Shown here: positions 17,461-40,033 of the stretch, piece by piece
Position numbering within the stretch: the first letter of the stretch is position 1
Layout of the letters: the number at the start of each line of letters is the position of its first letter
DNA from: Vulcanococcus sp.
GTDB taxonomy: Bacteria; Cyanobacteriota; Cyanobacteriia; PCC-6307; Cyanobiaceae
Direction: 5' to 3'
Assembly (NCBI RefSeq): GCF_044369115.1
Contig: NZ_JBIPMN010000001.1
Span: 1-44,435 of the forward strand
Length of the DNA: 44,435 nt
Notes under the pieces: generated by a model
Told to the model about the DNA's origin: nothing
The model's input: the letters and a program-made list of their open reading frames with translations, nothing else
Databases searched by the model: none
Program-made: the position numbers and the translations under genes

Positions 17461-17519
17461 CGGGTTGCCTGCAAGGACCTAACGCGCTGCGTGCATGGGA
17501 AGGCGTCTCGCAAAGACTG

Positions 17520-17554
17520 CTTGCAGCTCTGTACGTGGCGTACAGAAACCTGGA
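17520..17554. repeat. Dispersed ~35-bp palindrome, copy 1
   Basis: CTTGCAGC-TCTGTAC-GTGGC-GTACAGA-AACCTGGA. Confidence 0.75.
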
Positions 17555-17595
17555 TGCCAGTGAGGAGAAGGACCTGCTGCCAAGAACGAGGGCAC

Positions 17596-17630
17596 AGGCA
17601 GGTTCTGTACAGAGCTTGCAGAACTTCGGT
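17596..17630. repeat. Dispersed ~35-bp palindrome, copy 2 (degenerate)
   Basis: AGGCAGGT-TCTGTAC-AGAGC-TTGCAGA-ACTTCGGT. Confidence 0.55.
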
Positions 17631-17704
17631 CAGATCACCGCAGTGAAAGCAGCAGGCCCTCCAAGCACTGAGACCCCCACCAGGCTGAGTCGCCCTTGAT
17701 CGAT

Positions 17705-18214
17705 TCAGTCGTCGCCGCCAGAGCTGCGCCGGCGACGGGTGCGGCCGGCACCGAAGGAATCAGCGCCGCGATCGCCGCCGCCATAGCTGCGGTCCTCCCA
17801 GCCACGGGCGCCGGAACCACGCTCACCGCCACCACCGGAGCGATCGCCGAAGTCGCTGCGGCCACCACCTCCATAACCACCGCCGCCATAGCCGCCGCCT
17901 CCGTAACCGCCGCCACCGCCATAGCCGCCGCGCCGGGGACCCCGGTCGCCGCCACCACCACCGCCGCCATTGCTGCGGGGTTCAGCTTTGTTGATGCGCA
18001 GCGGACGACCCATCAACTCGGCGCCCTGGAGGGCATCGATGGCGCGGGACTCACTGTCTTCATCGGCCAGCTCCACGAAGGCGAAGCCGCGCTTGCGGCC
18101 GGTGTCGCGCTCGAGGGGCAGGAAACAGTTGGTGACCTCGCCGAAGGGTGCGAACAACTCGGCCACGTCCTCCTGTTCCGCGCGGAAGGGGAGGTTTCCT
18201 ACAAAAATGCTCAC
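17705..18214 (-). CDS. RRM RNA-binding protein (cyanobacterial Rbp) with glycine-rich tail
   Basis: RNP2 IFVGNL, RNP1 RGFAFVEL, GGYGGG repeats. Confidence 0.95.
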   Translation of the reverse strand: MSIFVGNLPFRAEQEDVAELFAPFGEVTNCFLPLERDTGRKRGFAFVELADEDSESRAIDALQGAELMGRPLRINKAEPRSNGGGGGGGDRGPRRGGYGGGGGYGGGGYGGGGYGGGGRSDFGDRSGGGGERGSGARGWEDRSYGGGDRGADSFGAGRTRRRRSSGGDD

Positions 18215-18285
18215 AGGCCGAGGGGGCCGATCAGGCAGAACTTCAGCCCAGGAAGACTAAGCCGGCTCCGGCAGTTCGGAGGGCT

Positions 18286-19686
18286 TCACGCCGCGGCTGT
18301 CAGCCGCAAACGCGCCCGCTCCAGCTGCAAGCGCACCTGATCAAAGGCCGTGCCGCCTTCGCTGCGGCGGGCCGCCACCACCTGGCGCGGATGGATCGCC
18401 TCATAGATATCCGCCTCGAAGGCCGGATGCAGCTGTTGCCAACGCTCCAGCGCCAGATCACGCAACAGGATCCCCTCCTGCAGGCAGCCCTTCACCAGAC
18501 CGCCCACCAGCTGATAGGCCTCGCGGAACGGAACCCCCTTGGCCACCAGGTAATCAGCCACATCGGTGGCATTGGAGAAATCAGAAGCCACAGCGGCCTC
18601 AAGCCGCTCGGGGCGGAACTGCAGCCCCTCCTCAAACAGGATCGCCATCGCCTCCAGGCAGGCCAGGGTGGTAGCCACGGCATCGAAGAGGGCTTCTTTG
18701 TCTTCCTGGAAGTCTTTGTTGTAGGCGAGGGGCAAACCCTTGATCATCACCAGCAGGCCCTGCAGGTGGCCAAACACCCGGCCGCACTTACCCCGCACCA
18801 ACTCCGGCACATCGGGGTTCTTTTTCTGGGGCATCAGGCTGCTGCCAGTGGCGCAGCGGTCGGTGAGTTTCACGAAGCCGAACTCCTCGCTGGCCCAGAG
18901 GATCACCTCCTCACTCAGCCGGCTCAGGTGCACCATCACCAGACTGGCGGCGGCGCTGAACTCCACCGCAAAATCCCGGTCGCTCACCGCATCGAGGCTG
19001 TTGGCATATACGTCGTCGAAGCCAAGAGCCGCGGCGGTGTGGCGGCGGTCGATCGGCACTGGTGTGCCCGCCAGAGCCGCGGCCCCGAGCGGACAGATGT
19101 TCACGCGTTTGCGCAGATCTTGCAGCCGAGCCCGGTCGCGCTCGGCCATCTCCACATAGGCCAGCAGATGGTGGGCGAGGCAGATCGGCTGAGCCCGCTG
19201 CAGGTGCGTGTAGCCCGGAATCATCACCTCAGCGTGGGCTTCGGCCTGATCCAGGAGCGCCCGCTCGAAGCGCACCAACGCGCCATCAATGGCATCAATC
19301 TGGCCCCGCAGCCACAGGCGCAGATCCGTGCCCACCTGATCGTTGCGGGAGCGGCCGGTGTGCAGCTTTTTGCCCAGGGGGCCGAGGATCGCGATCAGGC
19401 GGCGCTCCACCGCGAAGTGCACGTCTTCGTCGTCGAGGCCGGGGTTGAACTCGCCGGCAGCTGCTTCGCTGCGCACCTGCTCCAGGCCCACCACCAGCTG
19501 CTCGGCTTCCTCAACCGTGATCACGCCGGTGCTGGCGAGCATGCGGGCGTGGGCGATGGAGCCGTCGAGGTCCTGCTGGAGCAGGGTGATGTCGAACCCG
19601 ATCGAGGCGTTGAAGCGTTCGATCGCCGGATGCAGACCCTCCTCGAAACGCTGGCTCCAAGTGGAGGAAGACGACTCAACGGCCAT
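18286..19686 (-). CDS. argH: Argininosuccinate lyase
   Basis: [37 protein letters not shown]. Confidence 0.98.
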
Positions 19687-19712
19687 CGGGGCCCGGCTCG
19701 ATCAGTTGAGGG

Positions 19713-21128
19713 TCAGCTTGGCAGGCGACTCAGTGAGGGGAGCATCACCTCCTCACGCACCTTGAGCACCACCATCGAGGCGTCGTCATCGAGCTGGCGA
19801 TCGGGCCCCACAAAGCGATCGAGGCGGGCGAACAACTGATCGAGAATGCCCTGGGCACCAAGGCCGGAGCGACAGGCCGCCTGCAAAGCGGCGATCAAGC
19901 GCTCCTCATCGAAACGCTCACCGTTGAGACCACTCGCTTCGGTGACACCATCGGTGTAGCAAAGCAGCACATCCCCCGGATCCAGCACGATCTGTTCGCA
20001 GCCGTATTGCGCTTCCGGCTGCAGCCCGATCAACAGGCCCGGCGCATCCAAGCGGTCGACGGCGTGGCGTATCCGCCGCCAGATCAGCGGTGGGTTATGG
20101 GCCGCATTGGCGAAGCGGAGCAGACGGGTGCGGGGGTCGTAGTCGGAATAGAAGAGCGTCACGAAGCGGTGCGACTGGGCCAGGTCCTCCTGGGCCAGCT
20201 GGTTGAGGTCGTGCAGGATCCGATCCGGGGCGTGGCCGCTGAGCACCTCGGCGCGGAGCATGCCGCGCAGCAGCGTCATCAACAGACCGGCCGGAACGCC
20301 CTTGCCCATCACATCCCCCACCACCAGCGCCCAGCGCCCCTGCTCGCGGCGGCGACCGAGCAGCTGGGGGCGGGTGGGGATGAAGTCGTAGTAATCGCCG
20401 CCCACCTGAAAGGCCGGGCGGCATCGGGCTGCCAGCTCCACCCCTTCAATCACCGGGCAGTGATCCGGCAGCAGCTGGGCCTGGATCTCGGCGCCGGTGG
20501 AGAGCTGCCGGTCGACGCGCTCATGGCGCCGCGCCTCCTGCAGCAGCTGTTCGCTCTCGATCGCCACCCCTGTGAGATCCGCCACCAGCTGGGCATAGCG
20601 GCGGTAACTCTCACTCCAACTCAAGCCGCTACGCGGGCCGTACACGTAGAGACGACCGCGGCTGCGGCTGCGGGCCACCACCGAGGTGGCAAACAGGGGC
20701 CGATCGGTGAGTTGGCGCCGCACCAAGCGATCGAGCAACAGAGCCACCGCTTCATCGCCGGAGGCCTGGAGCAGCTCCTCATCAGAAAGGCTGGCCAAGG
20801 CCCGCAACAGTTCCGGCGGCCCGCCATGCAACTGCTCGCGCCAGAGGCGGCCATCCGGGTGGAACGTGATCAGCAGCGCCCCTTCGCCCTCCACCAACCG
20901 AGTGGCCACGAGAGGCACTAGCTCCAGAAAGCGGCCAAGGTTGGTGAAGCTGCGCAAGGCAAAGCCGAGCGAGGCCAGCAGTTCCTGGTTGCGGCGCTGC
21001 TCGCGGCTGAGGCTGTCGAGCAGCTGCCGCACCGAAGCCAGCGGCGATGAGGGCCGCGGCAGCGCAGCGCGGTCGACGTGGCTCTGAAGCGGTGGATCAG
21101 ACCGCCGTGGGGGCGGCTTGCTGCTCAC
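19713..21128 (-). CDS. PP2C-family (SpoIIE/RsbU-type) Ser/Thr phosphatase with N-terminal GAF-like region
   Basis: VGGDYYD, GDVMGKG, NAAHNPPL, YTDGVTE, DDAS; start at GTG 21128. Confidence 0.92.
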   Translation of the reverse strand: MSSKPPPRRSDPPLQSHVDRAALPRPSSPLASVRQLLDSLSREQRRNQELLASLGFALRSFTNLGRFLELVPLVATRLVEGEGALLITFHPDGRLWREQLHGGPPELLRALASLSDEELLQASGDEAVALLLDRLVRRQLTDRPLFATSVVARSRSRGRLYVYGPRSGLSWSESYRRYAQLVADLTGVAIESEQLLQEARRHERVDRQLSTGAEIQAQLLPDHCPVIEGVELAARCRPAFQVGGDYYDFIPTRPQLLGRRREQGRWALVVGDVMGKGVPAGLLMTLLRGMLRAEVLSGHAPDRILHDLNQLAQEDLAQSHRFVTLFYSDYDPRTRLLRFANAAHNPPLIWRRIRHAVDRLDAPGLLIGLQPEAQYGCEQIVLDPGDVLLCYTDGVTEASGLNGERFDEERLIAALQAACRSGLGAQGILDQLFARLDRFVGPDRQLDDDASMVVLKVREEVMLPSLSRLPS

Positions 21129-21191
21129 CGAGCGGCCGCGAAGTGCCCGCAAGATAGCCGCGTTTTGTGGAGGAGCTGGCGGCGCTCTGAC

Positions 21192-22886
21192 CTACTTCGC
21201 CAGCAACGCCTCCACAAACTCGAAGCTGTTGAACGGACGCAGATCACGGATCCCCTCACCGGCACCGATGAAGCGGATGGGCAGACCGGCTTCCGACGCC
21301 ACCGCCAGGGCCACGCCGCCGCGGGAGCTGCCATCGAGCTTGGTGATCACCACACCGGTGAGGCCGGCAGCCTGGGCGAAGGCCATCGCCTGCTTCAAAC
21401 CGTTCTGACCCTGGCTGGCATCCAGCACAAGGAGCGACTGCACCACAGCATCGGGCGCCAGCTTGTCGACGATGCGACGCACCTTGCTGAGCTCCTCCAT
21501 CAGGTTGTGCTTGGTCTGCAGGCGACCGGCCGTATCCACCAGCACCAGATCGGTGCCTTTGGCTTGAGCAGCGCCGATGGCGTCAAACACCACAGCGGCA
21601 GGGTCGGCATTGGGGGAGGGGTTCGACACCACCGTGACGCCGCTGCGTTCCCCCCACACCGCCACCTGCTGGACGGCCGCAGCGCGGAAGGTGTCTGCAG
21701 CGGCGATCAGGCAGCTGTAGCCGCTGCGCACCGCGAGGTTGGCAAGCTTGCCGAGGGTGGTGGTTTTGCCCACGCCGTTCACACCCACCATCAGCCACAC
21801 GTTGAGGCGCCCGCGCTCGGGCGCCAGCAGCGGAGCACCACTGGCCTGAATCGGCGCATCGAGCAGGCCCTTGAGCTGCTCCTTCAGGAAGCGGATGCCC
21901 TCCGCGGGCTCCACCACCTCTTCGTTGAGCCGCTTGCGCAGGGCCTCGAGCACCTGATCGGTGGCCTGGACGCCCACATCGGCGCGAAGCAAGAGGCTCT
22001 CGAGGTCGTCGAGCACCTCGGGGGTGAGGGGATCGTCGCCGAGGTTGTCGAGCAGCTGGGTGACGAAGCCGCGGCGGGTCTTCTCCATGCCACGCCGCAA
22101 GCGGCCAAGCCAGTCGATCTCTTCAAGCGAGATGTCGCTGAGCTGGCGGCCCTGGGCGGCGAGCACTTCGGCCGACCAGGTGAACTCCTCATCGAAGGCA
22201 CCGAGCTGCGGGGCCGCATCATCGGCGGGTGTTGCAACCGGGGTCGCTGGCGCAGGGGGGGCCGCCGCGGGCACATCAATCGCCCGCTCCAACAGCTGCT
22301 GTTGGCGCTGCGCCCGCTGGGCGGCGGCCTGCTCCAGCAACGACAAACCAGCCGCCGGGGCAGAAGGCTCTGGCGGAGCGGAGGGCGCAGGAGCCGCCTG
22401 ATCACCGGCCGACTCCGGAGCAGGCTGTTGCGTGATCTGGGAGAGCTGCCCAGGAATCTGTACAGACTGAACAAACTCCTGGACAGGTGTTGCAGGTGGA
22501 TCTGCAGCGGTCAGCTGCGGCGCTGGCAACGATGGAGAGAGGTCGACTGGCGCGGCAGGAGCCGCTGATTGGGGCGATGGCTGCGCCGATGCGGGCTGTT
22601 TTTCAGCTTCTTGCTGGGCCTTCAACCGGGCATAGGCCTGACGAGCCCAATCGAGGGCGTCCTGATCGACGGCACCAACAGCTGGCGCTGACGCGGGTGC
22701 CGCGGCGGAAGGAGCGGGGGTAGCAGGAGCCGCCAGGGAAGGCTCAGGGTTTGGTTCCGGCTGAACAGCCTCGGGCGCTGGCACGGCAGGTGCCTCAGCG
22801 GCGGCCGGAGGCGGCGAGGTTTGTTCCGGCTGGGGCTCCTCGGGGTTCTGGGGGGCCGCGCTGCGCTTGAACCAGTCGAAAACCAT
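21192..22886 (-). CDS. ftsY: Signal recognition particle receptor FtsY with long Pro/Ala-rich N-terminal region
   Basis: GVNGVGKTTT, DTFRAAA, DTAGR, TKLDG, GEGIRDLRPF. Confidence 0.96.
   Translation of the reverse strand: MVFDWFKRSAAPQNPEEPQPEQTSPPPAAAEAPAVPAPEAVQPEPNPEPSLAAPATPAPSAAAPASAPAVGAVDQDALDWARQAYARLKAQQEAEKQPASAQPSPQSAAPAAPVDLSPSLPAPQLTAADPPATPVQEFVQSVQIPGQLSQITQQPAPESAGDQAAPAPSAPPEPSAPAAGLSLLEQAAAQRAQRQQQLLERAIDVPAAAPPAPATPVATPADDAAPQLGAFDEEFTWSAEVLAAQGRQLSDISLEEIDWLGRLRRGMEKTRRGFVTQLLDNLGDDPLTPEVLDDLESLLLRADVGVQATDQVLEALRKRLNEEVVEPAEGIRFLKEQLKGLLDAPIQASGAPLLAPERGRLNVWLMVGVNGVGKTTTLGKLANLAVRSGYSCLIAAADTFRAAAVQQVAVWGERSGVTVVSNPSPNADPAAVVFDAIGAAQAKGTDLVLVDTAGRLQTKHNLMEELSKVRRIVDKLAPDAVVQSLLVLDASQGQNGLKQAMAFAQAAGLTGVVITKLDGSSRGGVALAVASEAGLPIRFIGAGEGIRDLRPFNSFEFVEALLAK
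22449..22483. repeat. Dispersed ~35-bp palindrome, copy 3 (inside ftsY)
   Basis: CCCAGGAA-TCTGTAC-AGACT-GAACAAA-CTCCTGGA; encodes QEFVQSVQIPG in FtsY. Confidence 0.7.
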
Positions 22887-22899
22887 GGGCGCCTCCTGA

Positions 22900-23526
22900 T
22901 CAGCCCTTGGCGGGGGCGCTGGTGAAACGGCGGAGCACGCCGTTGATCATGCGGCGGCCTTGTTCGTCGCTGTAGCGATTGGCCAGTTCCACAGCCTCGT
23001 TGCAAGCCACGGCGGCGGGGGTGTTGAACTGCTCGATATCCACCGCAGCCAGGCGCAGGATGTCGCGGTCGATGCGGGGCAAGCGGGTGAGGCGCCAGCC
23101 TTCCATCACGGCATCGAGGCGTTGATCGAGATCTTCACGGCCCCTGAGCACAGCCCGGGCACGCTCCACTGCACCACGGCGGACCTCGTCCTGATCGGAG
23201 AGCATCAGCAGCCGCGGCAACTCGAGGCTGGCGGAGAGGCGGTTGAGGCCCTGCTCCGCGTGGGCGAGGCCGTCTTGCAGGTGCTGGCGGATGCGGGGCA
23301 GCTGCTCGACACCACCCTGATCCTGCAATTCGCTGTCGAGCAACTGCTGCTGAGCGGCCTGGAGGTCGGTGGCGGCCTGATCGAGAGCCTCGCGCACGTG
23401 CTGGCTCAGCGTCGCCTGGGCCTGCTGCAACAAGGCATCGAGCGGCGTGTCGGCCGCTGGCTGGCGATCGCTGATCTGACCGAGCATCAGCAGGGCCAGT
23501 TCACGGGCAACGGTGCGGCTCTGCAT
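22900..23526 (-). CDS. nusB: Transcription antitermination factor NusB
   Basis: RTVARELAL, WRLTRLPRIDRDILRLA, NEAVELANRY, INGVLR. Confidence 0.94.
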   Translation of the reverse strand: MQSRTVARELALLMLGQISDRQPAADTPLDALLQQAQATLSQHVREALDQAATDLQAAQQQLLDSELQDQGGVEQLPRIRQHLQDGLAHAEQGLNRLSASLELPRLLMLSDQDEVRRGAVERARAVLRGREDLDQRLDAVMEGWRLTRLPRIDRDILRLAAVDIEQFNTPAAVACNEAVELANRYSDEQGRRMINGVLRRFTSAPAKG

Positions 23527-24275
23527 CAGGCCTTGTTGGAAGGAAGAGGGGAGTAGGCCGGGGCCCGGAGCTGCGCCAGCAGGCTGGAGAAGCTGCGGCT
23601 GGCGGGGGTTTCGCGCTCGTCGGGATTGACGATGCCGGCCGAGATGATCGTGCGGAAAGCATCCTCCACCGAGAGGTTGAGATCCTTCACCGAAGCCTCC
23701 GGCACCACGGCATACCAGCCGGTGGTGGGGTTGGGGGCGGTGGGAATGAACACGCTCAACATCGGCTGATCAAAGCCGGCGGAGAGGGTGGCGCCGAGCA
23801 CACCGGTAACGAAACCCAGGGCATACAGGCCCTCGCGGGGATATTCCACCAACACCACCCGGCGGAAGCGCGTGGAGTTGTCGCGCAGGAAGGTTTCCAG
23901 CAGCTGCTTGAGCGTTTTGTAAACCGAGCCCGCCACGGGGATCCGCTGCAGGGTGCCCTCGCCGAATTCGAGCAGCCAGCGGCCCACGATGTTGCGGGCC
24001 ATCAGGCCGATTAACAAGATCCCCAGCAGGGGCACCAGCAGACCCAAGCCCAGGTTGATCAACTCCTGGAGGATCGGATCCAGGGTGTTGAACGGGTTGA
24101 GCTGCTTGGGGATCGAGGTGAGGAACGCCAGCACAAAGCGCGTCACCGTGGTGGCCAACCAGATCGTGGTGGCCAATGGGATCACCACCAACAGGCCGGC
24201 GATCAGATCGTTCTTGAGGTCCTGCTGGAGGCGATCGCCCAGGGGCTGCTCAGGTCTGGGACTGGATTGCACCAA
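23526..24275 (-). CDS. DUF502 (COV1-like) membrane protein
   Basis: GLLVVIPLATT, RIPVAGSVYKTLKQ, VLVEYPR, VFIPTAPNPTTG. Confidence 0.9.
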   Translation of the reverse strand: MVQSSPRPEQPLGDRLQQDLKNDLIAGLLVVIPLATTIWLATTVTRFVLAFLTSIPKQLNPFNTLDPILQELINLGLGLLVPLLGILLIGLMARNIVGRWLLEFGEGTLQRIPVAGSVYKTLKQLLETFLRDNSTRFRRVVLVEYPREGLYALGFVTGVLGATLSAGFDQPMLSVFIPTAPNPTTGWYAVVPEASVKDLNLSVEDAFRTIISAGIVNPDERETPASRSFSSLLAQLRAPAYSPLPSNKA

Positions 24276-24331
24276 TGACAGGCCGGGGCGTCCGGTGAAA
24301 AAAGTCCAATCCGCAACTTAGCCAGCCGCCC

Positions 24332-24982
24332 TCACAGAACGGCCACCACCGCCAGCAAGGTGAAGGCCACCAGGAGCACCACAGCCGTGCCGGTGCCGCC
24401 GATGCGGCGCTGATTGGCGGCCAGGTCGCGGCGGTTTTCAGCCTGCTTGAGCTGCTGTTCCGCCTGGTCCAGCTGGCGGTTCATGAAGGCCTGAGCAGCC
24501 TTCTTCTTCTGCTCATCGCTTGCGGTGGCAGGGATCTGACCGGCTTGCTCGCCCTGGGCAATCACCTGCTCCAGCACCTGGGGGTTATCCAGCTGGGCCT
24601 TGGCCATCTCCAGCTGGCCGCGCTGAGCCAACAGCGCCTGGTTGGCCTGATCGCTCACGGCGCGATCGCCGCTGATGCTCACGGGAATCGTGATCAGCAC
24701 GGCCAGTGCCAACAGGGCGCTCACGACACACACGAACCAGCGCAGCGGGGTGCGGCCCGGCACCGGCTCATCCAGGCGCTGACCGATCAGCATCAGCAGC
24801 ATCCCCACAAACGCCATGGGCGACTGGGTGACCAGCGTGGTGGCGAGCAGCTGGCGGAAGCTCTCTTCGCCCCAGCCGTTCACGCTGAGCACCGCCAGGA
24901 GCTGCAGGAACAGCAGCACCACCAGGGTGATGCCCAGCCAACGGAACAAGGTGCCGAATCGGCCGGACGCTGCTGAACTCAC
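24332..24982 (-). CDS. HpsJ-like membrane protein
   Basis: Three N-terminal hydrophobic segments, Gln-rich coiled coil and C-terminal TM helix; usual position between DUF502 and queG; start uncertain. Confidence 0.7.
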   Translation of the reverse strand: MSSAASGRFGTLFRWLGITLVVLLFLQLLAVLSVNGWGEESFRQLLATTLVTQSPMAFVGMLLMLIGQRLDEPVPGRTPLRWFVCVVSALLALAVLITIPVSISGDRAVSDQANQALLAQRGQLEMAKAQLDNPQVLEQVIAQGEQAGQIPATASDEQKKKAAQAFMNRQLDQAEQQLKQAENRRDLAANQRRIGGTGTAVVLLVAFTLLAVVAVL

Positions 24983-25014
24983 AGTGGTGCTGACGCAATC
25001 GCGCAATCGTAGGG

Positions 25015-25986
25015 GTGGTGGAACTCGCTGACACCCTCAAGCAACAGGCCCGGCAGCTGGGCTTTGCGGCGGTGGGCATTGCTTCCGCCGCAGGCAGCGA
25101 ACGGTTGCGGCTGCGCACGGCCGCCCTGGAGCGCTGGCTCGCGGCCGGCCATCAAGCCGACATGGCCTGGATGGCGGATCCGCGCCGGCGGGCGGTGGAA
25201 GCGCTGCTGCCAGGGGTGCGCAGCGTGGTGGCGGTGGGACTGCCCTATTGGGTGGACGCGGCGCGAGCCCCCGGCTCCCTCAAGGTGGCCCGCTACGGCT
25301 GGGGGCGCGATTACCACCGGGTGATCGATGGGCGGCTGCGGGCCCTGGGGCGCTGGCTGGAATCTCAGGTGCCCGACGGGGCATGGCGCGCCTGTGTGGA
25401 TAGCTCACCCCTGCTGGACAAGGCCTGGGCCGAGGAAGCGGGCCTGGGCTGGATCGGCAAACACAGCAACCTGATCAGCCGCGAGCACGGCTCCTGGCTG
25501 CTGATCGGCCACCTGCTCACCACCCTCGAGCTACCGGCCGATGCGCCTGCAGTGCCGGCCTGCGGTGCCTGCAGCACCTGCCTGGAGGCGTGCCCCACCG
25601 GCGCCATCACGGAACCGTTCGTGGTGGATGCCCGCCGCTGCATTGCCTTTCACACCATCGAAAACCGCGGTCCCGAACTGCCCAGCGCCATCGCGGATTC
25701 CCTCGAAGGCTGGGTGGCCGGCTGCGACATCTGCCAAGACGTGTGTCCGTGGAATCAGAAACCCTTCGCGAGCAGCAGCGATCCCGATCTGCAACCACGC
25801 CCCTGGTGGCTGGATCTGCGCGCCGAGGAGGCCCTGGGCTGGAGTGATGAGGACTGGGACGACAAGCTGCGCGCCTCCGCCCTGCGCCGGATCAAGCCAA
25901 CGATGTGGCGACGCAACATCCGCGCGGCAACAGGGCTTGGATCCGGTGAAGGCGCAGGCGCCGAACGATCGCTGGCGGACAGCTGA
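25015..25986 (+). CDS. queG: Epoxyqueuosine reductase
   Basis: ARYGWGRDYH, VDSSPLLDK, AGLGWIGK, CGACSTCLEACPT, GCDICQDVCPWN. Confidence 0.96.
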   Translation: MVELADTLKQQARQLGFAAVGIASAAGSERLRLRTAALERWLAAGHQADMAWMADPRRRAVEALLPGVRSVVAVGLPYWVDAARAPGSLKVARYGWGRDYHRVIDGRLRALGRWLESQVPDGAWRACVDSSPLLDKAWAEEAGLGWIGKHSNLISREHGSWLLIGHLLTTLELPADAPAVPACGACSTCLEACPTGAITEPFVVDARRCIAFHTIENRGPELPSAIADSLEGWVAGCDICQDVCPWNQKPFASSSDPDLQPRPWWLDLRAEEALGWSDEDWDDKLRASALRRIKPTMWRRNIRAATGLGSGEGAGAERSLADS

Positions 25987-26014
25987 GCAAGGTCCGCACA
26001 GATGGCGCGGTGAA

Positions 26015-26051
26015 CGCACAGGTTCCGTACGGTATGTACAGAAGCTGTGCG
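26015..26051. repeat. Dispersed ~35-bp palindrome, copy 4
   Basis: CGCACAGGT-TCCGTAC-GGTAT-GTACAGA-AGCTGTGCG in the queG-TPR spacer. Confidence 0.7.
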
Positions 26052-26138
26052 AGCGCACAAATCGCCGCAACGGGGCCCGCAGCCCGCGGTCAGCCTGAGC
26101 ATTGCTGCCTAACCTGCGGCTGTGATCGCCCTGCATCG

Positions 26139-27023: not shown

Positions 27024-27076
27024 GCCCGTGATCTGTAGGCTGAGCGCCACTTTCAGCCCCCCGGCCTGAGCCACGG

Positions 27077-29581
27077 ATGCCCAAGGCGCGCCCCGATCAG
27101 CCGCTGCCGGACCCATCCGACGATCGGCGCATCCAGCCGATCGAGCTGCACCAGGAGATGCAGCGCTCCTACCTCGAATACGCCATGAGCGTGATCGTGG
27201 GCCGGGCCCTGCCCGACGCCCGCGACGGCCTCAAGCCTGTGCAGCGCCGCATCCTCTATGCGATGCACGAGCTGGGGCTCACCCCGGATCGCCCCTACCG
27301 CAAGTGCGCCCGCGTGGTGGGCGATGTGCTCGGCAAGTACCACCCCCACGGCGATCAGGCGGTGTACGACGCCCTGGTGCGCCTGGTGCAGACCTTCGCC
27401 AGCCGCAACCCCCTGCTGGATGGCCATGGCAACTTCGGCTCGGTGGACGACGACCCACCGGCCGCCATGCGTTACACCGAAACGCGGCTGGCACCGATCG
27501 CCAACGAGGCGATGCTCGATGAAATTGGCGACGACACCGTTGATTTCGCCCCCAACTTCGATGGCTCCCAACAGGAGCCCACGGTGCTGCCGGCCCAGCT
27601 GCCGTTTCTGATCCTCAACGGCTGCACGGGCATCGCCGTGGGCATGGCTACCAACATCCCACCCCACAACCTGGGCGAGGTGGTGGATGCCCTGATCGCC
27701 CTGGTGCGCAAGCCCGATCTGAGCGACGAAAAACTGCTGGAGCTGGTGCCCGGCCCCGACTTCCCCACCGGCGGCGAGGTGTTGACGGGCAGCGGTGTGC
27801 GCGACACCTATCTCACGGGCCGCGGCAGCATCCCGATGCGGGGCGTGGCTCACATCGAGGAGGTTCAGCCCGGCAAGGGCCGCCACAAACGCGGCGCCGT
27901 GGTGATCACCGAGCTGCCATATCAGCTGAGCAAGGCCGGCTGGATCGAGAAGCTCGCCGAGCAGGTGAACGAGGGCAAGATCAACGGCATCGCCGACATC
28001 CGCGACGAATCCGACCGCGAAGGCATGCGCGTGGTGGTGGAGCTGCGCCGCGACGCCAACCCCGAAACAGTGCTCGCCGAACTGCAGCGCCGCACCGCTC
28101 TGCAAAGCAACTACGGCGCGATCCTGCTGGCGCTGGTGCACGGCAAGCCGATCCAGCTCACCCTGCGCCAACTGCTGCAGGAGTTCCTCGAATACCGCGA
28201 ACTCACCCTGATCCGGCGCACGCGCCATGCGCTGAAACGCACGGAAGATCGCCTCGAGGTGGTGGAGGGTCTGATCACCGCTCTTAACGCCCTGCCCAAA
28301 GTGATCGAGATGATCACCGCCGCCCCCGATGCCGCCAGCGCCCGGGCCAGCCTGCAGGTGCATCTCGACATCACTGAACGCCAGGCCGATGCGGTGCTGG
28401 CAATGCCCCTGCGCCGGCTCACGGGTCTGGAGCAGGAAAGCCTGCGCAAGGAAGCCGAGGATCTACGCCAGGAACGCAGCCGCCTGCGCCACCTGCTGGA
28501 TGAGCGCCCGGCCCTGCTCGACGCCATGGTGGCCGAGTTCAAAGCGCTCAAAAAACGCTTCGCCACGCCACGCCGCACCCGCCTGGTGGAAGGGGGCGAT
28601 GAACTGGTGGCCCAGCGCACCGCCGCCCAACGCCCCAACACCGAACTGCTGCGTCAGCGCGCCTTCGAGGGCCTGAGCAGCGATGGCCGCCTGGTGATCC
28701 AGGCCGATGGCCAGGTGAAGGTGGTGGGTCCGCAACTGCTGGGCCGGCTGCACCTGGATGAACCGGCACCGCTGGGCGACAACCCCTCACCGGCAAGGCT
28801 GATCCTGCCGATCAGCGAGAAGCCAGCGCTGCTCGCCTTCACCGATGCCGGCCGGGTGGCGTTGCTGCGTTGGGAATTCGCTGGCCAGCAGCCGGGAACG
28901 CTCGAGAAGTTCCTGCCGGAAGGCATGAGCGGTGAACGGGTGGTGCAACTGCTGCCTCTCCCCAGCGGTGCTGACGCCGAAGGCACCAGTGTTGGCCTCT
29001 TGAGCAGCGATGGCCGCTTCAAGCGGCTGCCGATCGAGGATTTCCAGGAGCTCTCTGGCAGGGCCGCCTCGGTGCTGAAGCTCAAGGACGGCGTGAGCCT
29101 GCGGCGGGTGGTGCTCTGCCGGGAAGGCGACGAGTTGGTGGTGGGGAGTTCCACCGGTCGCCTGCTGCGGCTGGCGGTGAATGAAGCCAACCTGCCGGTG
29201 ATGGGCCGCAATGCCCAGGGACCAGTGCTGTTCCGGCTGCTGCCCGGAGAAGCAGTGGTAGGCGCCGCCAGCGTCACCCTCGGGGGCTGCGTGCTGCTGG
29301 CGAGCCGCAGCGGCCAGCTCAAACGCCTCACGGTGAACAGCCTGCGCCGCTGCCAACGGGGCGACATCGGCCAGATCGGAGTGCGATTCAGCGAGCGAGG
29401 AGATCAATTGATCGATCTACAGGAAGCTCGAAGCAACGTGCTGGCCGCCGTGCTCAGCGATGGCCGCAGCCTGCGGCTGGATATAGCCGAACTGCAGGCC
29501 GAGGATGACACCGGCAGCGGTCAGCCCCTGGGGCTGGGCGGCCATGAAGCCGTGGCCGAGCTGGTGCCGCTGCTGGGCTGA
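27077..29581 (+). CDS. DNA gyrase/topoisomerase IV subunit A (ParC-like cyanobacterial paralog)
   Basis: [24 protein letters not shown], catalytic [21 protein letters not shown]; no QxRGGKG GyrA-box and a divergent CTD. Confidence 0.92.
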
Positions 29582-29586
29582 AACGC

Positions 29587-29667
29587 TCAGCGCAACAGGT
29601 CGTCATCCGCCAGATCGATGAAGACCTGGACTTCGGCCTCCTCAAGGCTCGGCGCCAAGAAAAGCAT
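29587..29667 (-). pseudogene. Possible C-terminal fragment of a small antitoxin (DUF3018-like)
   Basis: MLFLAPSLEEAEVQVFIDLADDDLLR* resembles the acidic AxxQAFID tail of DUF3018 antitoxins; recognised by eye only. Confidence 0.3.
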
Positions 29668-29709
29668 CCTCACCGCCGTGCCTTGGCAGTGGCCTCTGAG
29701 CCACTCACC

Positions 29710-29842
29710 TCAGCTTGAGCGGTGCAGTTCAACACGTTCAAAATCGGCAAACCGACGGTCAAAGCTCAACACTGGCAAGGCAGCGGTGTTGGTGGCCAAG
29801 GCCAGAATCAGCTGATCAGCCAGATCTCCTCCCTGGCGGAAC
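29710..29842 (-). pseudogene. C-terminal fragment of a PIN/VapC toxin
   Basis: FRQGGDLADQLILALATNTAALPVLSFDRRFADF contains the DxxD and (S/T)FD motifs of the PIN C-terminal half; N-terminal half absent. Confidence 0.7.
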
Positions 29843-29957
29843 CTTGGGGCGGTCCTGGAACAGATCCTCCGGCTCGTATTTGGAGGGCACCAGCACCAAG
29901 CGGCCGTTCCGGTCGATGGAGGCCTGCAACCTGGCACCAGGTGCCAAGCCAAGCGCG

Positions 29958-29959
<2 letters not shown>
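29840..29959 (-). pseudogene. Internal fragment of an AbrB/MazE/SpoVT-family antitoxin
   Basis: Frame not listed in the ORF track reads DALGLAPGARLQASIDRNGRLVLVPSKYEPEDLFQDRPKV (AbrB LGLxPG...GRLVLVP); no start codon, begins at the uvrA stop. Confidence 0.7.
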
Positions 29960-32915
<2,956 letters not shown>

Positions 32916-33088
32916 CCGGGCGGCTCGGGAATCAAGGAGTCTACGGGCGCCGACCAGCCCTCAGCAGTCATGCGATTGATGCGGCTGCGCCAGATGCAGC
33001 AGAGCGTGGATCCAGATACGGGCGCCATCCTGTTTCAGGATCCACGGCTGAAAGACCTGGTGGCCGCTAAGGCAATCCCGCAGCACTG

Positions 33089-33123
33089 TCCAGCCTTTTG
33101 CGCATGCTGTACAGAACCCCGGC
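33089..33123. repeat. Dispersed ~35-bp palindrome, copy 5
   Basis: TCCAGCCT-TTTGCGC-ATGCT-GTACAGA-ACCCCGGC between uvrA and the Uma2 gene. Confidence 0.65.
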
Positions 33124-33171
33124 GAGCAGCTGGAACAACATCTCAAGCAACGAAAGAGAAACTGAACCTGG

Positions 33172-33795
33172 CTAGCCCTGCCATACCTCAGCCAGATCGA
33201 TCTGCAACCCCGGGAAGAGGTTGCCGGCATCGAGTGTTGTGGCAGGCGCGATCCGCTCAGTCTGTGAAGCCCCGGCCAACCACACCTCCACAGCCCGCTG
33301 CTCGGGAATCAACAACCAGCCGAGCTGAGCACCGTTGGCTTGGTAGGCGGCCATCTTTCGACGCAGGGCCGTGAGGCCGCGAGGACCTTCGTCGCTGGGG
33401 CTGGCCAGCTCCACCACAAGATCCGGACACAGGGGCGCAAAACCACGCCGCTCCTCGGCCGTCAGCGCCTCCCAGCGCTCGCGCCGCACCAACGAGGCAT
33501 CGGGGCTCAGCACCGAGCCGTCGGGCAATCGAAACCCTGTGGAGCTGTCGAACAGTTTGAGGGGCAGCCCAGATGCGCGAACACCAAGCCAAAGAAGGGC
33601 GCCGAGTGCCTGGTTTCTGGCACCTGTTTCACTGCCGGTGGGAGTCATCTGAATCAACTCACCGCTGGCATCAAGCTCCAGCACGGCATCGGGGTTGGCG
33701 TGGCAGACGGCTTCAAATTGGTCGGCTGTCAGCCGCAGACGTTCAGGCAGGAGGAGCGGAGCCAGACCGTTAGCAGGCACCGTTGCAAGCGTCAT
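33172..33795 (-). CDS. Uma2 (DUF820) family PD-(D/E)XK endonuclease
   Basis: FDSSTGFRLPDG, SPDAS, PLCPDLVVELASPSD, KMAAYQANGAQLGWLL. Confidence 0.92.
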   Translation of the reverse strand: MTLATVPANGLAPLLLPERLRLTADQFEAVCHANPDAVLELDASGELIQMTPTGSETGARNQALGALLWLGVRASGLPLKLFDSSTGFRLPDGSVLSPDASLVRRERWEALTAEERRGFAPLCPDLVVELASPSDEGPRGLTALRRKMAAYQANGAQLGWLLIPEQRAVEVWLAGASQTERIAPATTLDAGNLFPGLQIDLAEVWQG

Positions 33796-33883
33796 GGCCA
33801 GGTCGCAACGCCAGCTTCAGCCTAGGGCGGCTGTTCGCTAGAGGCTGGAGCGCACAAGCCCCAAGACAGCAGTGGCCTGACGG

Positions 33884-35560
33884 CTAGCCCGCGCGCTTGA
33901 GCAGGCTGGCGGCATAGCTGCGGGTTTCGCCGGAATCACCACCGGCCAGTTCGGCCAGTTCGGCCTGGCGGGCCTGAGTGTCCCGCAGTTGGGACACCTG
34001 GGTGTGGGTGACACCATCGCGCACCTGCTTGGACACGCGGAAGTGGTGATCAGCCGCCGCGGCCACCAGGGGCTGGTGGGTGACGCAGAACACCTGGCGT
34101 TGCTGGGCCAGGCGCTGCAGCAGCTCGGCCATGGCACCGCTGACGCGGCCGCTCACGCCGGTGTCGATCTCATCGAACAGCAGGGTCACGTGCTGGTCAG
34201 CGGCAGCGAGGCAGGTTTTGAGGGCCAACAGGAAGCGGCTCATCTCACCGCCGGAAGCCACCTCGGCCAGGGGAGCGAGGGGCTGGCCAGGGTTGGCGGA
34301 AAACAAGAACTGCACGGCATCGGCACCCTCGTCGCCAGGGGCCGCCGCTTCCATGGCCACGCTGAAGCGCACATTGGCCAGGCCCATCGGCCGCAGAGCC
34401 TGCATCAGCTGGTTTTCCAGCTCAGCGGCAGCGGCGCGGCGAGCCGCACTGAGAGAAGCATTGCAACGATCGCGCTGCTGGCGGGCTGCAGACTCAGCCG
34501 CCTCGAGCGCCTCCAAACTGGCCTCAGCTCCTCCGGGAGCCAGCTGCTCCCGCAGCTGATCGCGCCACGCCATCAGCTCTTCAAGGCTCTTGCCATGGCG
34601 GCGCTCCAGGGCCTTGAGCTGGGCGATGCGCTCCTGCAGTTGCCCGAGGCTCTCAGGGTCGCTCTCGAGCAGCGCCCCATAGCGATCGAGATCGCGGGCC
34701 AGATCCTGGAGCTGGGCCAGGCCCTCGCTGCAACGGCTAGCCAGCGCCGCCGCCTCAGGGTCCAGCTGCTGCATCGCCGCCAACTCGCCCTCACAGGCCG
34801 CCAGGTGGTCCAGCACAGACGGAGCTTCTTCCGCTCCATCCACCAGCCGGCCCAGCAGGGTCATCACCCCTTCCTGCAGGCGCACCCCATGGGCGAGGCG
34901 GTTTTCCTCGGCCTGGAGGCGCTCCCGCTCCGTCGGGTCATCAAGCTGGGCGGCCTCCAGATCCGTGAGCAGTTGCTCCTGCCGCTCGCGCTCCTGCTGC
35001 AGCTGCTCCCAGTTGCTGCGGGCCTGCTCGAGCTTCTGAGCAGCGGCACGCCAGGCGCGGTAAGCCTCCGCTACCGGAGCGAGTAGACCCTGCAGCAGAT
35101 CACCGGCAAAACGATCCAGCCAGCGCCGCTGCTGACCCGGGCGCGCCAGGTGCTGGGTTTGCCCCTGCACGGTGAGATCGAGCAGCAGGGGGCGCAGCTC
35201 CTGGATCTGGGCGCGATTCACCGCCACACCATTGAGTCGGTGGCGACTACTGAGGCGCTCGTCGCTCAGGCGCCACTCCCGCGTGAGCAGGATTTCACCG
35301 TCTTCGGCGTCGAGCTCCTGCTGCTCGAGCCAACGTTGCAGCGGCGGCGTGAGGCTGAAGCTCGCCTCGATCACACCCCGCTCGCTCCCCTGGCGCAGCA
35401 GCCGCGGCCCTCCGGATCCACCCAGAAGTGCATCCAGCGCATCCAAAAGGATGGATTTGCCGGCGCCGGTTTCACCGGTGAGCACCGTGAACCCACCACT
35501 GAAATCGAGCTGCAAGTGCTCGATCAGGGCGATGTTCTGCAGGCGCAGTCCGGTGAGCAC
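33884..35560 (-). CDS. recN: DNA repair protein RecN
   Basis: LTGETGAGKS, long coiled coil, ASGGEMSR, FDEIDTG, VTHQP; start at GTG 35560. Confidence 0.96.
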   Translation of the reverse strand: MLTGLRLQNIALIEHLQLDFSGGFTVLTGETGAGKSILLDALDALLGGSGGPRLLRQGSERGVIEASFSLTPPLQRWLEQQELDAEDGEILLTREWRLSDERLSSRHRLNGVAVNRAQIQELRPLLLDLTVQGQTQHLARPGQQRRWLDRFAGDLLQGLLAPVAEAYRAWRAAAQKLEQARSNWEQLQQERERQEQLLTDLEAAQLDDPTERERLQAEENRLAHGVRLQEGVMTLLGRLVDGAEEAPSVLDHLAACEGELAAMQQLDPEAAALASRCSEGLAQLQDLARDLDRYGALLESDPESLGQLQERIAQLKALERRHGKSLEELMAWRDQLREQLAPGGAEASLEALEAAESAARQQRDRCNASLSAARRAAAAELENQLMQALRPMGLANVRFSVAMEAAAPGDEGADAVQFLFSANPGQPLAPLAEVASGGEMSRFLLALKTCLAAADQHVTLLFDEIDTGVSGRVSGAMAELLQRLAQQRQVFCVTHQPLVAAAADHHFRVSKQVRDGVTHTQVSQLRDTQARQAELAELAGGDSGETRSYAASLLKRAG

Positions 35561-35707
35561 AGCTGGCGGCCGGTGTTGAGCCCGACCGTAGCGGCTGCGT
35601 CTTTCGTTTAGAAGAGGGACAACACTGAATGGGCACCCGGGGCCCGAACCCGCGGTATGCCAGGCACCAACAGTCCACTCACCCCCCTGGAAGCCGCCAG
35701 CGCCGCC

Positions 35708-37828
35708 ATGCGCCGCTCTGTTCTGGGCGAGCTGATCGACGACCCCACGCGGGACGACCGAACCGAGGGCACAACTGACCACACAACCAGCACCCACGCA
35801 GATCACGGACCGACCGGGACGGTCAAAGAAGGATCAGCGTCGTTTCCAGAATTTTGTACAGACAGTACAGAGAACCGGACACTCCCCCAAACACAATCCA
35901 GCCCGTCGCCGATCGCTCCCTCTGCGCCACCCAACGCCGACCTCAGCGATTTCATTGAGGTGTCCGGCCTGCTCGAATACGACCCCGCGGCCATCAGCCG
36001 CATCTATGCCGGCGCCCCCCAGCGCCTGATTCGGCGCATCTGGCAAACGCTGGTGCCGATCGGCCTCTACCTAGTAAGCGTGGGGATCGACTGGCTCACC
36101 CGCCGGCTCAGCAATCCCGATCACGCGCGGGCTCGCGCCAAGGAAGCCGCCGACCTGGTGGCTTCCCTCGGCCCCGCCTTCATCAAGGCGGGCCAGGCCC
36201 TCTCCACCCGGCCCGACATCGTGCCCCCCCTTCTGCTGGAGGAGCTGGCGGGCCTGCAAGACCAACTGCCGGGCTTCGATTCAGCCCTGGCGATGGCCTG
36301 CATCGAAGACGACCTCGGCGCCCCGATCGCCTCGATCTACGCCGAGCTGGAGCGCGAACCGATCTCCGCCGCCTCCCTGGGCCAGGTGCACCGGGGCGTG
36401 TTGCTCAACGGCGAGAAGGTGGCCGTGAAGGTGCAGCGGCCGGGCCTGCGCGAGCAGATCACGCTTGATCTCTACATCGTGCGCAACATCGCCGCCTGGC
36501 TCAACCGCAACATCGGCCTGATCCGCTCCGATCTGGTGGCCCTGATCGATGAGCTGGGCAAGCGGGTGTTCGAGGAGATGGACTACTGCAACGAGGCCTC
36601 CAACGCCGAGCGTTTCGCCGAACTGCACGCCCACAACCCTCGGATCGCCGTGCCGCGCATCCACCGCCATGCCACGGCCCGGCGGGTGCTCACGATGGAG
36701 TGGATCGATGGGGTGAAGCTCACCAACCTCGAGGCGGTGCGCCAGCTCGGCATCGACCCCGACGACATGGTGAGCGTGGGCGTGAACTGCTCGCTGCAGC
36801 AGCTGCTGGAGCACGGCTTCTTCCATGCCGATCCCCACCCCGGCAACCTGCTGGCCCTGGCCGATGGGCGCCTCGCCTATCTGGATTTCGGGATGATGAG
36901 CACCGTGAGCCGCGAAAGCCGCACGGGGCTGATCCAGGCGGTGGTGCACCTGGTGAACCGCAACTTCGGCAAGCTCTCCAAAGACTTTGTGAGCCTCGGC
37001 TTCCTGGCGGAAGACGTGGATCTCTCACCGATCGTGCCGGCCTTCGAGCAGGTGTTCGGTCAGGCCCTGGAGATGGGGGTGAGCCGCATGGATTTCAAGG
37101 CCGTCACCGACGACCTCAGCGGCGTGATGTACCGCTTCCCCTTCCAGGTGCCGCCCTACTACGCCCTGATCATCCGCTCGTTGGTGACGCTCGAAGGCAT
37201 CGCCCTGAGCGTCGACCCCGACTTCAAGATCCTCGGCGCCGCCTATCCCTACTTCGCCCGCCGGCTGATGGAAGATCCCGATCCGCAGCTGCGCAACAGC
37301 CTCAAGGAGATGCTGTTCGACGGCGAGATCTTCCGCTGGCAGCGGCTCGACAACCTGATCAGCAGCGCCGCCAGCGGCAGCCAGCTCGATCTCGACGGCC
37401 TGCTGGATCAGGTGCTCGATTTCCTGTTCTCCCCCAACGCCGGGATGCTGCGCGGGCAGCTGGTGGAGGCAGCGGTGAATCAGATGGATGCCCTGGGCTG
37501 GCAAACCACCCTGCGCATCACCCAGCGGCTGCCACGGCTGCTGCGGCCGCCCGGCCTGCGCGATGCCCTGCCGATGAGCGCCAACGACGCCGAACTGCTC
37601 TCACTCGAACCGATCCAACGGCTTGTGGCCATCCTGGGCCAGCTCCCTGGCTTCGAGCCGCAGCTGCTGCTGAAGCGGATCCCGCGGCTGCTGCAGGAAA
37701 CTGAGCTGCGCCGCATGGGGGCCGAGCTGGCCCGCGGTCTGGCGGAGCGCGGTGTGGTGCACCTGGTGCGCGATGTGCTGATCGGGGTGGATCGCAGCCG
37801 ACCGATCCCCACCCAGCAACCCGCCTAA
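35708..37828 (+). CDS. ABC1/AarF/UbiB family atypical kinase
   Basis: LGPAFIKAGQALSTRPD, AASLGQVH, VAVKVQRP, FFHADPHPGN, LDFG; start uncertain (35657 or 35708). Confidence 0.92.
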   Translation: MRRSVLGELIDDPTRDDRTEGTTDHTTSTHADHGPTGTVKEGSASFPEFCTDSTENRTLPQTQSSPSPIAPSAPPNADLSDFIEVSGLLEYDPAAISRIYAGAPQRLIRRIWQTLVPIGLYLVSVGIDWLTRRLSNPDHARARAKEAADLVASLGPAFIKAGQALSTRPDIVPPLLLEELAGLQDQLPGFDSALAMACIEDDLGAPIASIYAELEREPISAASLGQVHRGVLLNGEKVAVKVQRPGLREQITLDLYIVRNIAAWLNRNIGLIRSDLVALIDELGKRVFEEMDYCNEASNAERFAELHAHNPRIAVPRIHRHATARRVLTMEWIDGVKLTNLEAVRQLGIDPDDMVSVGVNCSLQQLLEHGFFHADPHPGNLLALADGRLAYLDFGMMSTVSRESRTGLIQAVVHLVNRNFGKLSKDFVSLGFLAEDVDLSPIVPAFEQVFGQALEMGVSRMDFKAVTDDLSGVMYRFPFQVPPYYALIIRSLVTLEGIALSVDPDFKILGAAYPYFARRLMEDPDPQLRNSLKEMLFDGEIFRWQRLDNLISSAASGSQLDLDGLLDQVLDFLFSPNAGMLRGQLVEAAVNQMDALGWQTTLRITQRLPRLLRPPGLRDALPMSANDAELLSLEPIQRLVAILGQLPGFEPQLLLKRIPRLLQETELRRMGAELARGLAERGVVHLVRDVLIGVDRSRPIPTQQPA
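35845..35879. repeat. Dispersed ~35-bp palindrome, copy 6 (in ABC1 N-terminal extension)
   Basis: TCCAGAAT-TTTGTAC-AGACA-GTACAGA-GAACCGGA. Confidence 0.75.
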
Positions 37829-39659: not shown

Positions 39660-40030
39660 GCAAGACAACCACAAAAGCGTCTGTTCACAGGCTGAGGAAA
39701 ACCCGCCAGACCAACCAGGGAAAACTATGGGCGTCCAACACAGCCTGAACCCGTGAGTTTTCCGCAATGGCGGGAATCAGCGGAAAACAAGCTTTTCCGG
39801 ATGCGCTCACTGACGCAATCACCAGGGCTGTGGAAACAAGATCAGTTGCGCTGCAGTGCTTTAGAAGGGTTTTGATCCGTTTCCCCACCCTCTACGGCTG
39901 CGAATTTGGATTTTGTTCTTTGAATCTCTTGATCCGTTAGACGTCGGGTTGGGGAGAAGTGGGGAAACCGCTCGCTGGCCCCGTTGCACTTCCCGCCCTG
40001 TTGTGGAAGCGTGGGAGCCGCTTTGCCCAT
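39660..40030. other. Probable chromosomal replication origin oriC
   Basis: Non-coding region upstream of dnaN with several near-matches to TTTTCCACA (39693-39701, 39758-39766, 39829-39837 with one mismatch; 39779-39787, 39793-39801, 39960-39968, 40002-40010 with two) and a T-rich stretch at ~39903-39939. Confidence 0.75.
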
Positions 40031-40033
40031 GCC

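Follow-up and report, generated by a model that had tools for sequence, protein, structure and literature searches.

Dispersed palindromes of picocyanobacteria resemble antitoxin operators and track a Phd-PIN fusion gene

A stretch of 44,435 nucleotides from Vulcanococcus sp. (assembly GCF_044369115.1, contig NZ_JBIPMN010000001.1), called the window below, carries six copies of a dispersed palindrome. The partner protein of this palindrome family is very probably the product of a gene on another contig that fuses a Phd-type antitoxin domain to a PIN domain (Phd-PIN fusion). The motif stands just upstream of the fusion gene, its extra copies co-occur with the gene, and they lose score in a genome where the gene is broken. 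We propose that the scattered palindromes are binding sites of the fusion protein with an architectural or roadblock role on the origin-proximal region, a proposal that we regard as evenly balanced between true and false; granted the fusion as partner, the balance tips slightly toward that role. The window is contig C284 of a genome, G000, of 2.70 Mb in 299 contigs (94% complete, 64.6% GC), and makes up 1.6% of it. Genomes, contigs, and loci are cited by our own G, C, and L numbers.

Results

Architecture of the motif

A site profile was refined on 218 cores from many genomes and applied with a threshold of at least 10 bits. This position weight matrix found 26 sites in G000, six of them in the window, compared to none in a 2.7-Mb 5th-order Markov control, consistent with the dispersed family that the original prediction had described from the window alone. 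The motif consensus is TGTCC-N4-TTCTGTACAG-N-CTGTACAGAA-N4-GGACA, and its center consists of two CTGTACAG octamers with a 9-bp period joined by one free base. The original prediction had described the five central bases as a spacer of free sequence, but over 237 sites they read A/G/N/C/T at 0.78/0.89/-/0.89/0.78. The spacer is conserved except for one base because the unit is two octamers joined by that base. The two main units are spaced 9 bp apart. Outer units at 12 bp are matched in just 9% of sites, and profile information is at background beyond about 25 bp from the motif center.

Core deviations in 45 non-redundant sites were one-sided in 117 cases and compensated in 7. Core complementarity equaled the cross-site null (z −0.5), with a mild, unexplained excess at positions 11–19 (z about 3). 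The predominance of one-sided deviations fits a protein reading double-stranded DNA and not a hairpin; the lack of compensatory change rules out a hairpin as well as an origin of the flanks by inverted duplication. An Rfam search of the window gave no match. A center that is 1 bp shorter (TGTAC-N4-GTACA) replaces the usual site in the infC-gntR gap of G130, G146, and G229, and G000 has two matches to the shorter center, at C262:1406 and C262:3279.

A Phd-PIN fusion gene beside the motif

The gene that carries the motif in G000 is the following.

G000, contig C285, 6955-7686 (locus L088), minus strand: Phd-PIN fusion gene, a 243-residue open reading frame (ORF) between cobH and holA

The divergent neighbor of the fusion gene is cobH, and the fused carboxy-terminal domain is a PIN domain. 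A 36-bit site (C285:7700-7738) ends 13 bp before the fusion ATG. The original prediction did not see this cognate gene because it lies on another contig. A comparison of the gene content of origin regions gave no partner gene; the partner emerged from a pattern scan of public sequences. Of 54 fusion-family loci, 53 have the motif upstream of the Phd domain and seven carry four tandem 9-bp units (a 55th locus was dropped as an unrelated Phd), and some fusion genes also encode a motif copy in their linker. We found 207 homologues of the fusion protein, which databases name simply as antitoxins. The fusion is directly upstream of holA wherever both are in view, and it lies 11–83 kb from dnaN in the seven genomes with both placed.

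An exact-pattern scan of species genomes returned at least 128 stretches. Among the matches listed, 108 are cyanobacterial by record title (Cyanobium, Vulcanococcus, Synechococcus lacustris, and others) and 20 are non-cyanobacterial or unlabeled, with Limnohabitans and other Burkholderiales, Kuenenia, and Geminicoccaceae as the non-cyanobacterial carriers. The motif stands just upstream of a Phd/YefM-type ORF in 12 of these 20 records. Two Kuenenia records (L149 and L176) show a Phd-type ORF followed by a related PIN ORF as two separate genes. The Phd and PIN parts are one ORF in picocyanobacteria and are split only in the non-cyanobacterial relatives. Six other Phd-like antitoxin ORFs seen in G000 lack the motif.

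The original prediction did not recognize the motif as a named family, but its TGTACA core makes it kin to the Phd/YefM antitoxin operators described in PMC1802561. In Escherichia coli, YefM binds TGTACA palindromes that come in pairs with 12-bp spacing (PMC1802561, PMC7730913), so reading of the motif core by a Phd-fold protein would follow from known biology. The likeness to YefM-YoeB and Axe-Txe covers the Phd/YefM-fold amino-terminal domain, the TGTACA core, the paired palindromes just upstream of the antitoxin start, and weak outer units that lie 12 bp from the inner ones. The present system differs in that the main pair is 9 bp apart and not 12 bp center to center, the partner is a PIN domain fused in the same ORF, and 20–30 copies lie away from the gene. 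Within the genus g60, the center of the fusion's own operator also differs from most dispersed copies, which approach a perfect double octamer.

No description of the motif family or the fusion was found in the literature searched, which lay mostly outside subscription journals, excluded supplements, and included parts of PMC5499597 and PMC5498466. A 'phd2' listed for Synechococcus CB0101 in PMC5498466 might be the fusion protein. Genome G019 has two full-length fusion genes (C101 and C88; 95% and 84% identical to that of G000), which may be contamination. The window itself contains a two-gene Phd + PIN toxin-antitoxin (TA) module directly after pilC (14398-15056, minus strand), and the motif is absent upstream of it.

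Domains of the fusion protein

The amino terminus matches PhdYeFM (PF02604) with an E value of 1.5e-6 and 28.3 bits in G000, just under the cut-off of 29.8, and it exceeds the cut-off in L253. PF02604 is precomputed on most fusion homologues. The best match of the fusion among solved sequences is the amino-terminal domain of Mycobacterium tuberculosis VapB46 (PDB 6jqy; E 1.9e-5). The AlphaFold model of the fusion has a predicted local distance difference test (pLDDT) score of 81.7, and the top Foldseek matches of the carboxy-terminal part are VapC/PIN chains (E 4e-4 to 1e-3, probability 1.00). All 52 of 52 sequences retain the first PIN aspartate, D112. The second acid, a glutamate in the two-gene relatives, aligns to R153 in G000 and is kept in G005 and G027, and position 207 is never acidic in the 52 sequences. 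The pattern of acidic residues suggests that the PIN domain is probably nuclease-dead. The PIN part is 85–96% identical among six close relatives.

A four-copy model of the fusion scored 0.59 compared to 0.00 for the best control and has a PIN-PIN interface; its runs agree in at least 34% of contacts with a partner pLDDT of at least 70, and the same score mark is attained by 20 of 30 solved pairs as well as by 1 of 23 single chains. The solved VapC dimers may explain why this model passes. On these features, the fusion would be a stable, probably non-toxic oligomer with two dimerizing ends.

Co-occurrence of sites and gene

The fusion protein was used to search 160 genomes. At least three strict sites were counted in 41 of the 70 that have the fusion, whole or in part, compared to 2 of the 90 that lack it; the two fusion-free exceptions are 94% complete, and one also lacks dnaN. 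A minimal core pattern applied to 80 of these genomes gave 38 of 45 among those with the full gene and 1 of 32 among those without it (three with a partial gene were set aside). Within g60, the corresponding values are 20 of 22 and 0 of 16. The fusion fragments in G264 and G031 are at contig ends.

A single-gene HolA tree, rooted at the midpoint and read by eye, places loss or breakage of the fusion on about eight separate branches. Genome G013 holds a fusion remnant and its close relative G202 an intact gene. All seven core substitutions at four orthologous sites lower the G013 score, and the flanks of the pair differ at about 4%. At G229:C68 near 43400 (L373), the Phd half is lost by a 319-bp deletion that runs from the upstream operator to the linker operator copy.

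Six sites in the window

The six dyads of the original prediction are present where it had placed them, apart from the one given as 26015, which is off by one. Its 19-bp core matches two of the six exactly and four with at most one mismatch; shuffled sequence gives a mean of 0.01 core matches, and none of 100 shuffles reaches four. The sites, as 39-bp units, are as follows.

17518..17556, no strand: site 1, convergent dusA-rbp gap, two CTGTACAG-like octamers 9 bp apart, 21 bits
17594..17632, no strand: site 2, dusA-rbp gap, 76 bp from site 1, the weakest copy, 16 bits
22447..22485, no strand: site 3, in frame in the Pro/Ala-rich amino-terminal linker of ftsY, 33 bits
26014..26052, no strand: site 4, in the queG-TPR gap and central in about 160 bp of extra DNA (about 25929-26087), 26 bits
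33087..33125, no strand: site 5, between a Uma2-family gene and uvrA, 26 bits
35843..35881, no strand: site 6, in frame in the amino-terminal linker of a ubiB/ABC1 kinase ORF, 33 bits

The predicted mixture of settings was confirmed, with two copies in a convergent gap, others in the tandem gaps queG-TPR gene and Uma2 gene-uvrA, and others inside ORFs. The dusA-rbp gap is 197–216 bp longer in G000 than in the site-free G035, G020, G026, G028, and G008, and site 2 has a weak orthologous copy in G016. The ftsY ORF (21192-22886, minus strand) has site 3 orthologues in G016, G020, G028, G026, G035, and G027; the G008 version is 105 bp shorter and has no site. The site 4 locus is filled in G000 and G035 and is 156–162 bp shorter in G020, G016, G028, G026, and G008; lake contigs also contain the short allele. 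The queG carboxy terminus extends into the extra DNA at site 4 (25929-25986). The site 5 locus, where Uma2 was called by Pfam, has 193 bp of extra DNA compared to G028. The ubiB/ABC1 kinase ORF (35657-37828, plus strand) is divergent from recN. The position of site 6 is matched in G035, G028, G020, G026, G016, G013, and G005, and the locus is 156 bp shorter in G008 and 192 bp shorter in G022 and G036.

Contigs from other lake metagenome runs, one of which could be the source sample, have 0 differing letters at five of the six sites and 0–1 at the ftsY site. The six sites are not assembly artifacts, because lake contigs carry them essentially unchanged.

Anatomy of a copy

Site-free orthologous loci are shorter by a median of 138 bp in 279 pairwise comparisons, and the difference is 6 bp when both loci are filled. 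Among the closest seven genomes, filled loci are a median of 152 bp longer than their empty orthologues at 19 loci, and at 18 of the 19 the empty form is 85–285 bp shorter, which confirms the empty orthologous sites that the original prediction had raised. Coordinates of some further orthologues give indels of about 30–66 and 114 bp. The core sits centrally in the extra DNA. Empty orthologues hold no half-site in 18 pairwise alignments, and neither a target duplication nor shared ends were seen in them. Flanks common to non-orthologous copies were not found in a first set of 79 sites. Identity is 80% between orthologous cores, 56% between their flanks, and 49% between unrelated flanks; the core value has some circularity, as the sites had been selected by score. 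The in-frame ftsY and ubiB copies are kept across 7–8 genomes with the motif read in different frames, which argues for a constraint on the DNA.

Copies in TA-rich islands are arranged as direct-repeat arrays, with TA modules between them. Several island copies, in L235, L237, L250, and L147, come after the 3′ end of an Rpn-like gene (DUF2887/DUF4351) or a remnant of one. The ftsY region of G000 and G016 and loci near dnaN in G026 and G016 are 90–98% identical in stretches around some sites, in genomes that are otherwise divergent. These stretches point to recent exchange of alleles, a process that could spread the filled form. Of 237 sites, only 20 have adjoining Phd-coding DNA, and by protein profile the figure is 33 of 248; intermediate scores are almost absent. 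So few adjoining sequences rule out the idea that lone sites are stumps of a Phd module.

Distribution and origin bias

Allowing at most one mismatch, a 21-bp pattern has matches in 21 of the 36 relatives in the genus and 80 of the 300 genomes in the family, where reversed-pattern controls gave 0–2. The origin bias entertained in the original prediction appears in G000, G035, G020, G026, G082, and G222 and is missing from G008 and G204. Eight of nine G035 sites are at most 101 kb from dnaN, and 7 of 12 in G020 are within 20 kb. In closed genomes, the sites within 250 kb of dnaN number 7 of 11 in G026, 7 of 12 in G082, and 9 of 10 in G222. Seven of the 22 classified intergenic sites of G000 are convergent and four further sites were called inside ORFs (six with ftsY and ubiB). 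Most copies lie away from ordinary promoter positions, as the original prediction had argued. When dyads were sought de novo around dnaN in four site-poor genomes, no substitute motif emerged. A lone match common to G022, G023, and G036 (two mismatches) was rejected; it is below the profile threshold and is coding in G036.

Comparison with known systems

The parS/ParB system and the ram/RacA system of Bacillus subtilis have tens of palindromic sites in the origin region that are independent of promoters. The present family is similar in number, palindromic form, origin bias, and promoter independence. It differs in its motif, ParB_N and ParA were not found, and clustering is absent in two of five closed genomes. 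A ParB_N (PF02195) search gave 0 in G000 and hits in 3 of 26 genus relatives. A ParA search gave one AAA_31 match in 21 of 24 genomes, which is MinD-like and next to minE in G000. The absence of ParB_N and the MinD-like nature of the only AAA_31 match count against parS in G000.

Short palindromic repeats that are patchy and sometimes in frame within genes are familiar from repetitive extragenic palindromes (REP/REPIN-RAYT), cyanobacterial small dispersed repeats, and Rickettsia palindromic elements. The present family differs from these in having no RAYT, hairpin covariation, or conserved ends, in its variable length, and in its dependence on a TA-derived protein. The Y1_Tnp domain of RAYT/TnpA was found 0 times in G000 (94% complete), G035, G020, and G170 and twice in G082. 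The original prediction had offered a dimeric-protein, recombination, or REP-like site. The fixed geometry read by a protein stands, and the REP/RAYT version falls with the lack of Y1_Tnp in G000 and of covariation. A linked RAYT/TnpA was not found in G000, nor did a linked tyrosine recombinase emerge: strong matches differ among five site-rich genomes, and those of G000 are off its main site contigs, apart from a weak hit on C177. By membership the family is neither parS nor REP, because ParB, ParA, and RAYT were not found in G000. Miniature inverted-repeat transposable elements and other small mobile repeats share its filled and empty orthologous sites and not its lack of conserved ends and target duplication.

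VapBC systems with a Phd-type antitoxin resemble the fusion through the VapB46 match and the carboxy-terminal VapC fold (structures such as 3zvk and 5ecw). VapBC comprises two separate genes with a labile antitoxin; the fusion is instead a single polypeptide from one 243-residue ORF at a fixed chromosomal locus, with acidic residues partly lost and an invariable toxin:antitoxin ratio. PMC4803016 and PMC3074150 describe omega2 of pSM19035 as a TA-operon repressor that is also a global regulator and a centromere-binding protein. This small repressor acting on short-repeat arrays is the closest analogy for the working of the fusion, and by analogy the fusion may work like omega2. The two differ in that omega2 is a plasmid-borne ribbon-helix-helix protein with a ParA ATPase, whereas the fusion has a Phd fold, is chromosomal, and has no ParA that we could find.

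Discussion

Alternative explanations

The same protein could be an ordinary repressor whose regulon comprises TA modules of foreign origin, genes of polysaccharide islands, and a small number of core genes, with the origin bias reflecting island location. Many copies are 60–190 bp away from where a TA operon or island gene begins, the G008 site cluster moved with its island, and Phd/YefM proteins are repressors (PMC1802561). We judge this explanation unlikely. No shared promoter is expected at the seven convergent sites of G000, up to six sites are in ORFs, site neighbors differ between genomes, and the own-operator center in g60 is unlike that of most dispersed copies. A site could also be a DNA-moving joint like attC or pdif, where direct-repeat copies flank cassettes, mostly TA, and lone copies are empty cassettes. 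Direct-repeat arrays do exist, with 0.7–1.5-kb spacing and TA cargo in L234, L235, L242, L248, and G129, filled loci are longer than empty ones, and the G229 deletion runs between two copies. Several features of the copies speak against a joint: lone cores are central in the extra DNA, empty orthologues keep no half-site, and shared ends or flanks were not seen. No linked recombinase was seen, the tyrosine-recombinase match on C177 of G000 is weak, Y1_Tnp occurs in one of five genomes, and the fusion protein, whose gene the sites track, lacks a recombinase domain. We consider the joint quite improbable.

Neutral relics or decoys left by TA-module traffic or chance duplication, kept alike by gene conversion or by protection from a bound protein, would have no job at all. 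The scarcity of adjoining Phd-coding DNA and of intermediate scores, cores that outlast their flanks, one-way decay after gene loss, and the conserved in-frame ftsY and ubiB copies all argue against relics. Presence per locus is patchy, the fusion gene is often lost, sites persist awhile after gene breakage, and several g60 genomes have extra copies with a promoter-type center that may be further Phd modules, and with these points included we find relics very improbable. A different binder, such as a LexA, DnaA, NtcA, or ParB variant with an incidental link to the fusion, is the least credible proposal and extremely improbable. LexA is present, uvrA and recN each have a window site nearby, and the center is 1 bp shorter at one locus in three genomes. 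The cyanobacterial LexA box is GTAC-N4-GTAC, one base shorter, as the original prediction noted. The family has N5, an N4 version of the profile finds two sites, and AGTAC-N4-GTACT occurs twice elsewhere, so LexA-type boxes are separate from the family. NtcA-type N8 matches likewise exist separately. A DnaA-box variant is ruled out, since the DnaA-type boxes are alike in site-rich and site-poor genomes. ParB_N is absent in G000, and the motif precedes Phd ORFs in unrelated phyla.

Proposed role of the fusion and its sites

The architectural or roadblock role of the Phd-PIN fusion is favored because convergent and in-ORF sites are unexplained by a promoter regulon. Other bacteria carry a two-gene Phd+PIN module with this operator; picocyanobacteria have both parts in one ORF at a fixed place between cobH and holA. 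By extension from Phd/YefM biology, each Phd dimer would read one CTGTACAG octamer, and 2–4 octamers at a 9-bp period would make a site. Predicted PIN-PIN contacts would link the subunits into a fixed 1:1 repressor-corepressor oligomer, which could span several octamers or two distant sites. The extra copies track gene presence and weaken after its loss; from sequence we infer that the fusion would bind them, that selection for binding would keep them, and that binding would have an effect. New copies may arise by duplication of 30–250-bp site-bearing fragments into tolerant places, and our searches found no dedicated mobilizing enzyme. It is also conceivable, if rather doubtful, that in freshwater picocyanobacteria the oligomer with its dead toxin domain as a bridge loops or compacts the origin region via the 20–30 former-operator copies.

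Several points weigh against an architectural or roadblock role. The genomes are kin and not independent, so the Fisher values of the co-occurrence overstate it, and the decay test consists of one genome pair and seven changes. The compact genomes G022, G023, G036, and G139 keep the gene with only 1–2 minimal sites, and genomes with a broken gene can still hold 7–13 sites (among them G222, G229, and G158), or 7–10 where the break is recent. Only one of six sites is within 250 kb of dnaN in G008 and likewise in G204, so that two of five closed genomes have no origin clustering. The G008 site cluster is 940 kb away in a polysaccharide/TA island, which indicates that sites travel with gene blocks. 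The G000 count, 15 of 26 sites on contigs mapping to the 180-kb dnaN segment of G035 (6% of the genome), refers to a segment chosen partly for holding sites. The origin bias is inseparable from nearness to the fusion gene, and with ParA/ParB not found nothing gives a partition role. Position 207 is presumably the place of the third catalytic acid, as judged by VapC spacing.

TA antitoxins normally bind one operator, their own. The fusion seems to be a fixed neighbor of holA in several genera, and where it is present a genome is predicted to have 3–20 additional operator copies, many of them close to the origin and some within core genes. Both domains and the type of operator are already known; the fixed-locus fusion and the genome-wide, origin-biased spread of its operator did not turn up in the literature searched. 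If the proposed role is true, a TA pair would have been domesticated into a nucleoid protein and a centromere-like array would have been born from a selfish module. This would be a traceable case of a selfish module turned host DNA-binding protein, with natural loss mutants for comparison, and it would name a concrete protein and site in bacteria where ParABS was not found.

Other features of the window

The window genes include murC, dnaJ, pilBTC, dusA, ftsY, queG, gyrA, uvrA, recN, ubiB-like, and dnaN, and this set is that of a picocyanobacterial origin region. One landmark lies outside the palindrome family.

39750..41164, plus strand: dnaN (NCBIfam), with TTTTCC(N)CA-like DnaA-type boxes upstream

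We take oriC to be upstream of dnaN in these cyanobacteria, which would make the DNA upstream of the window dnaN the likely oriC. An RTX-repeat/metzincin-like gene near dnaN (41963-43165, plus strand) is absent from all six site-poor regions compared and is present in 6 of 16 genomes compared.

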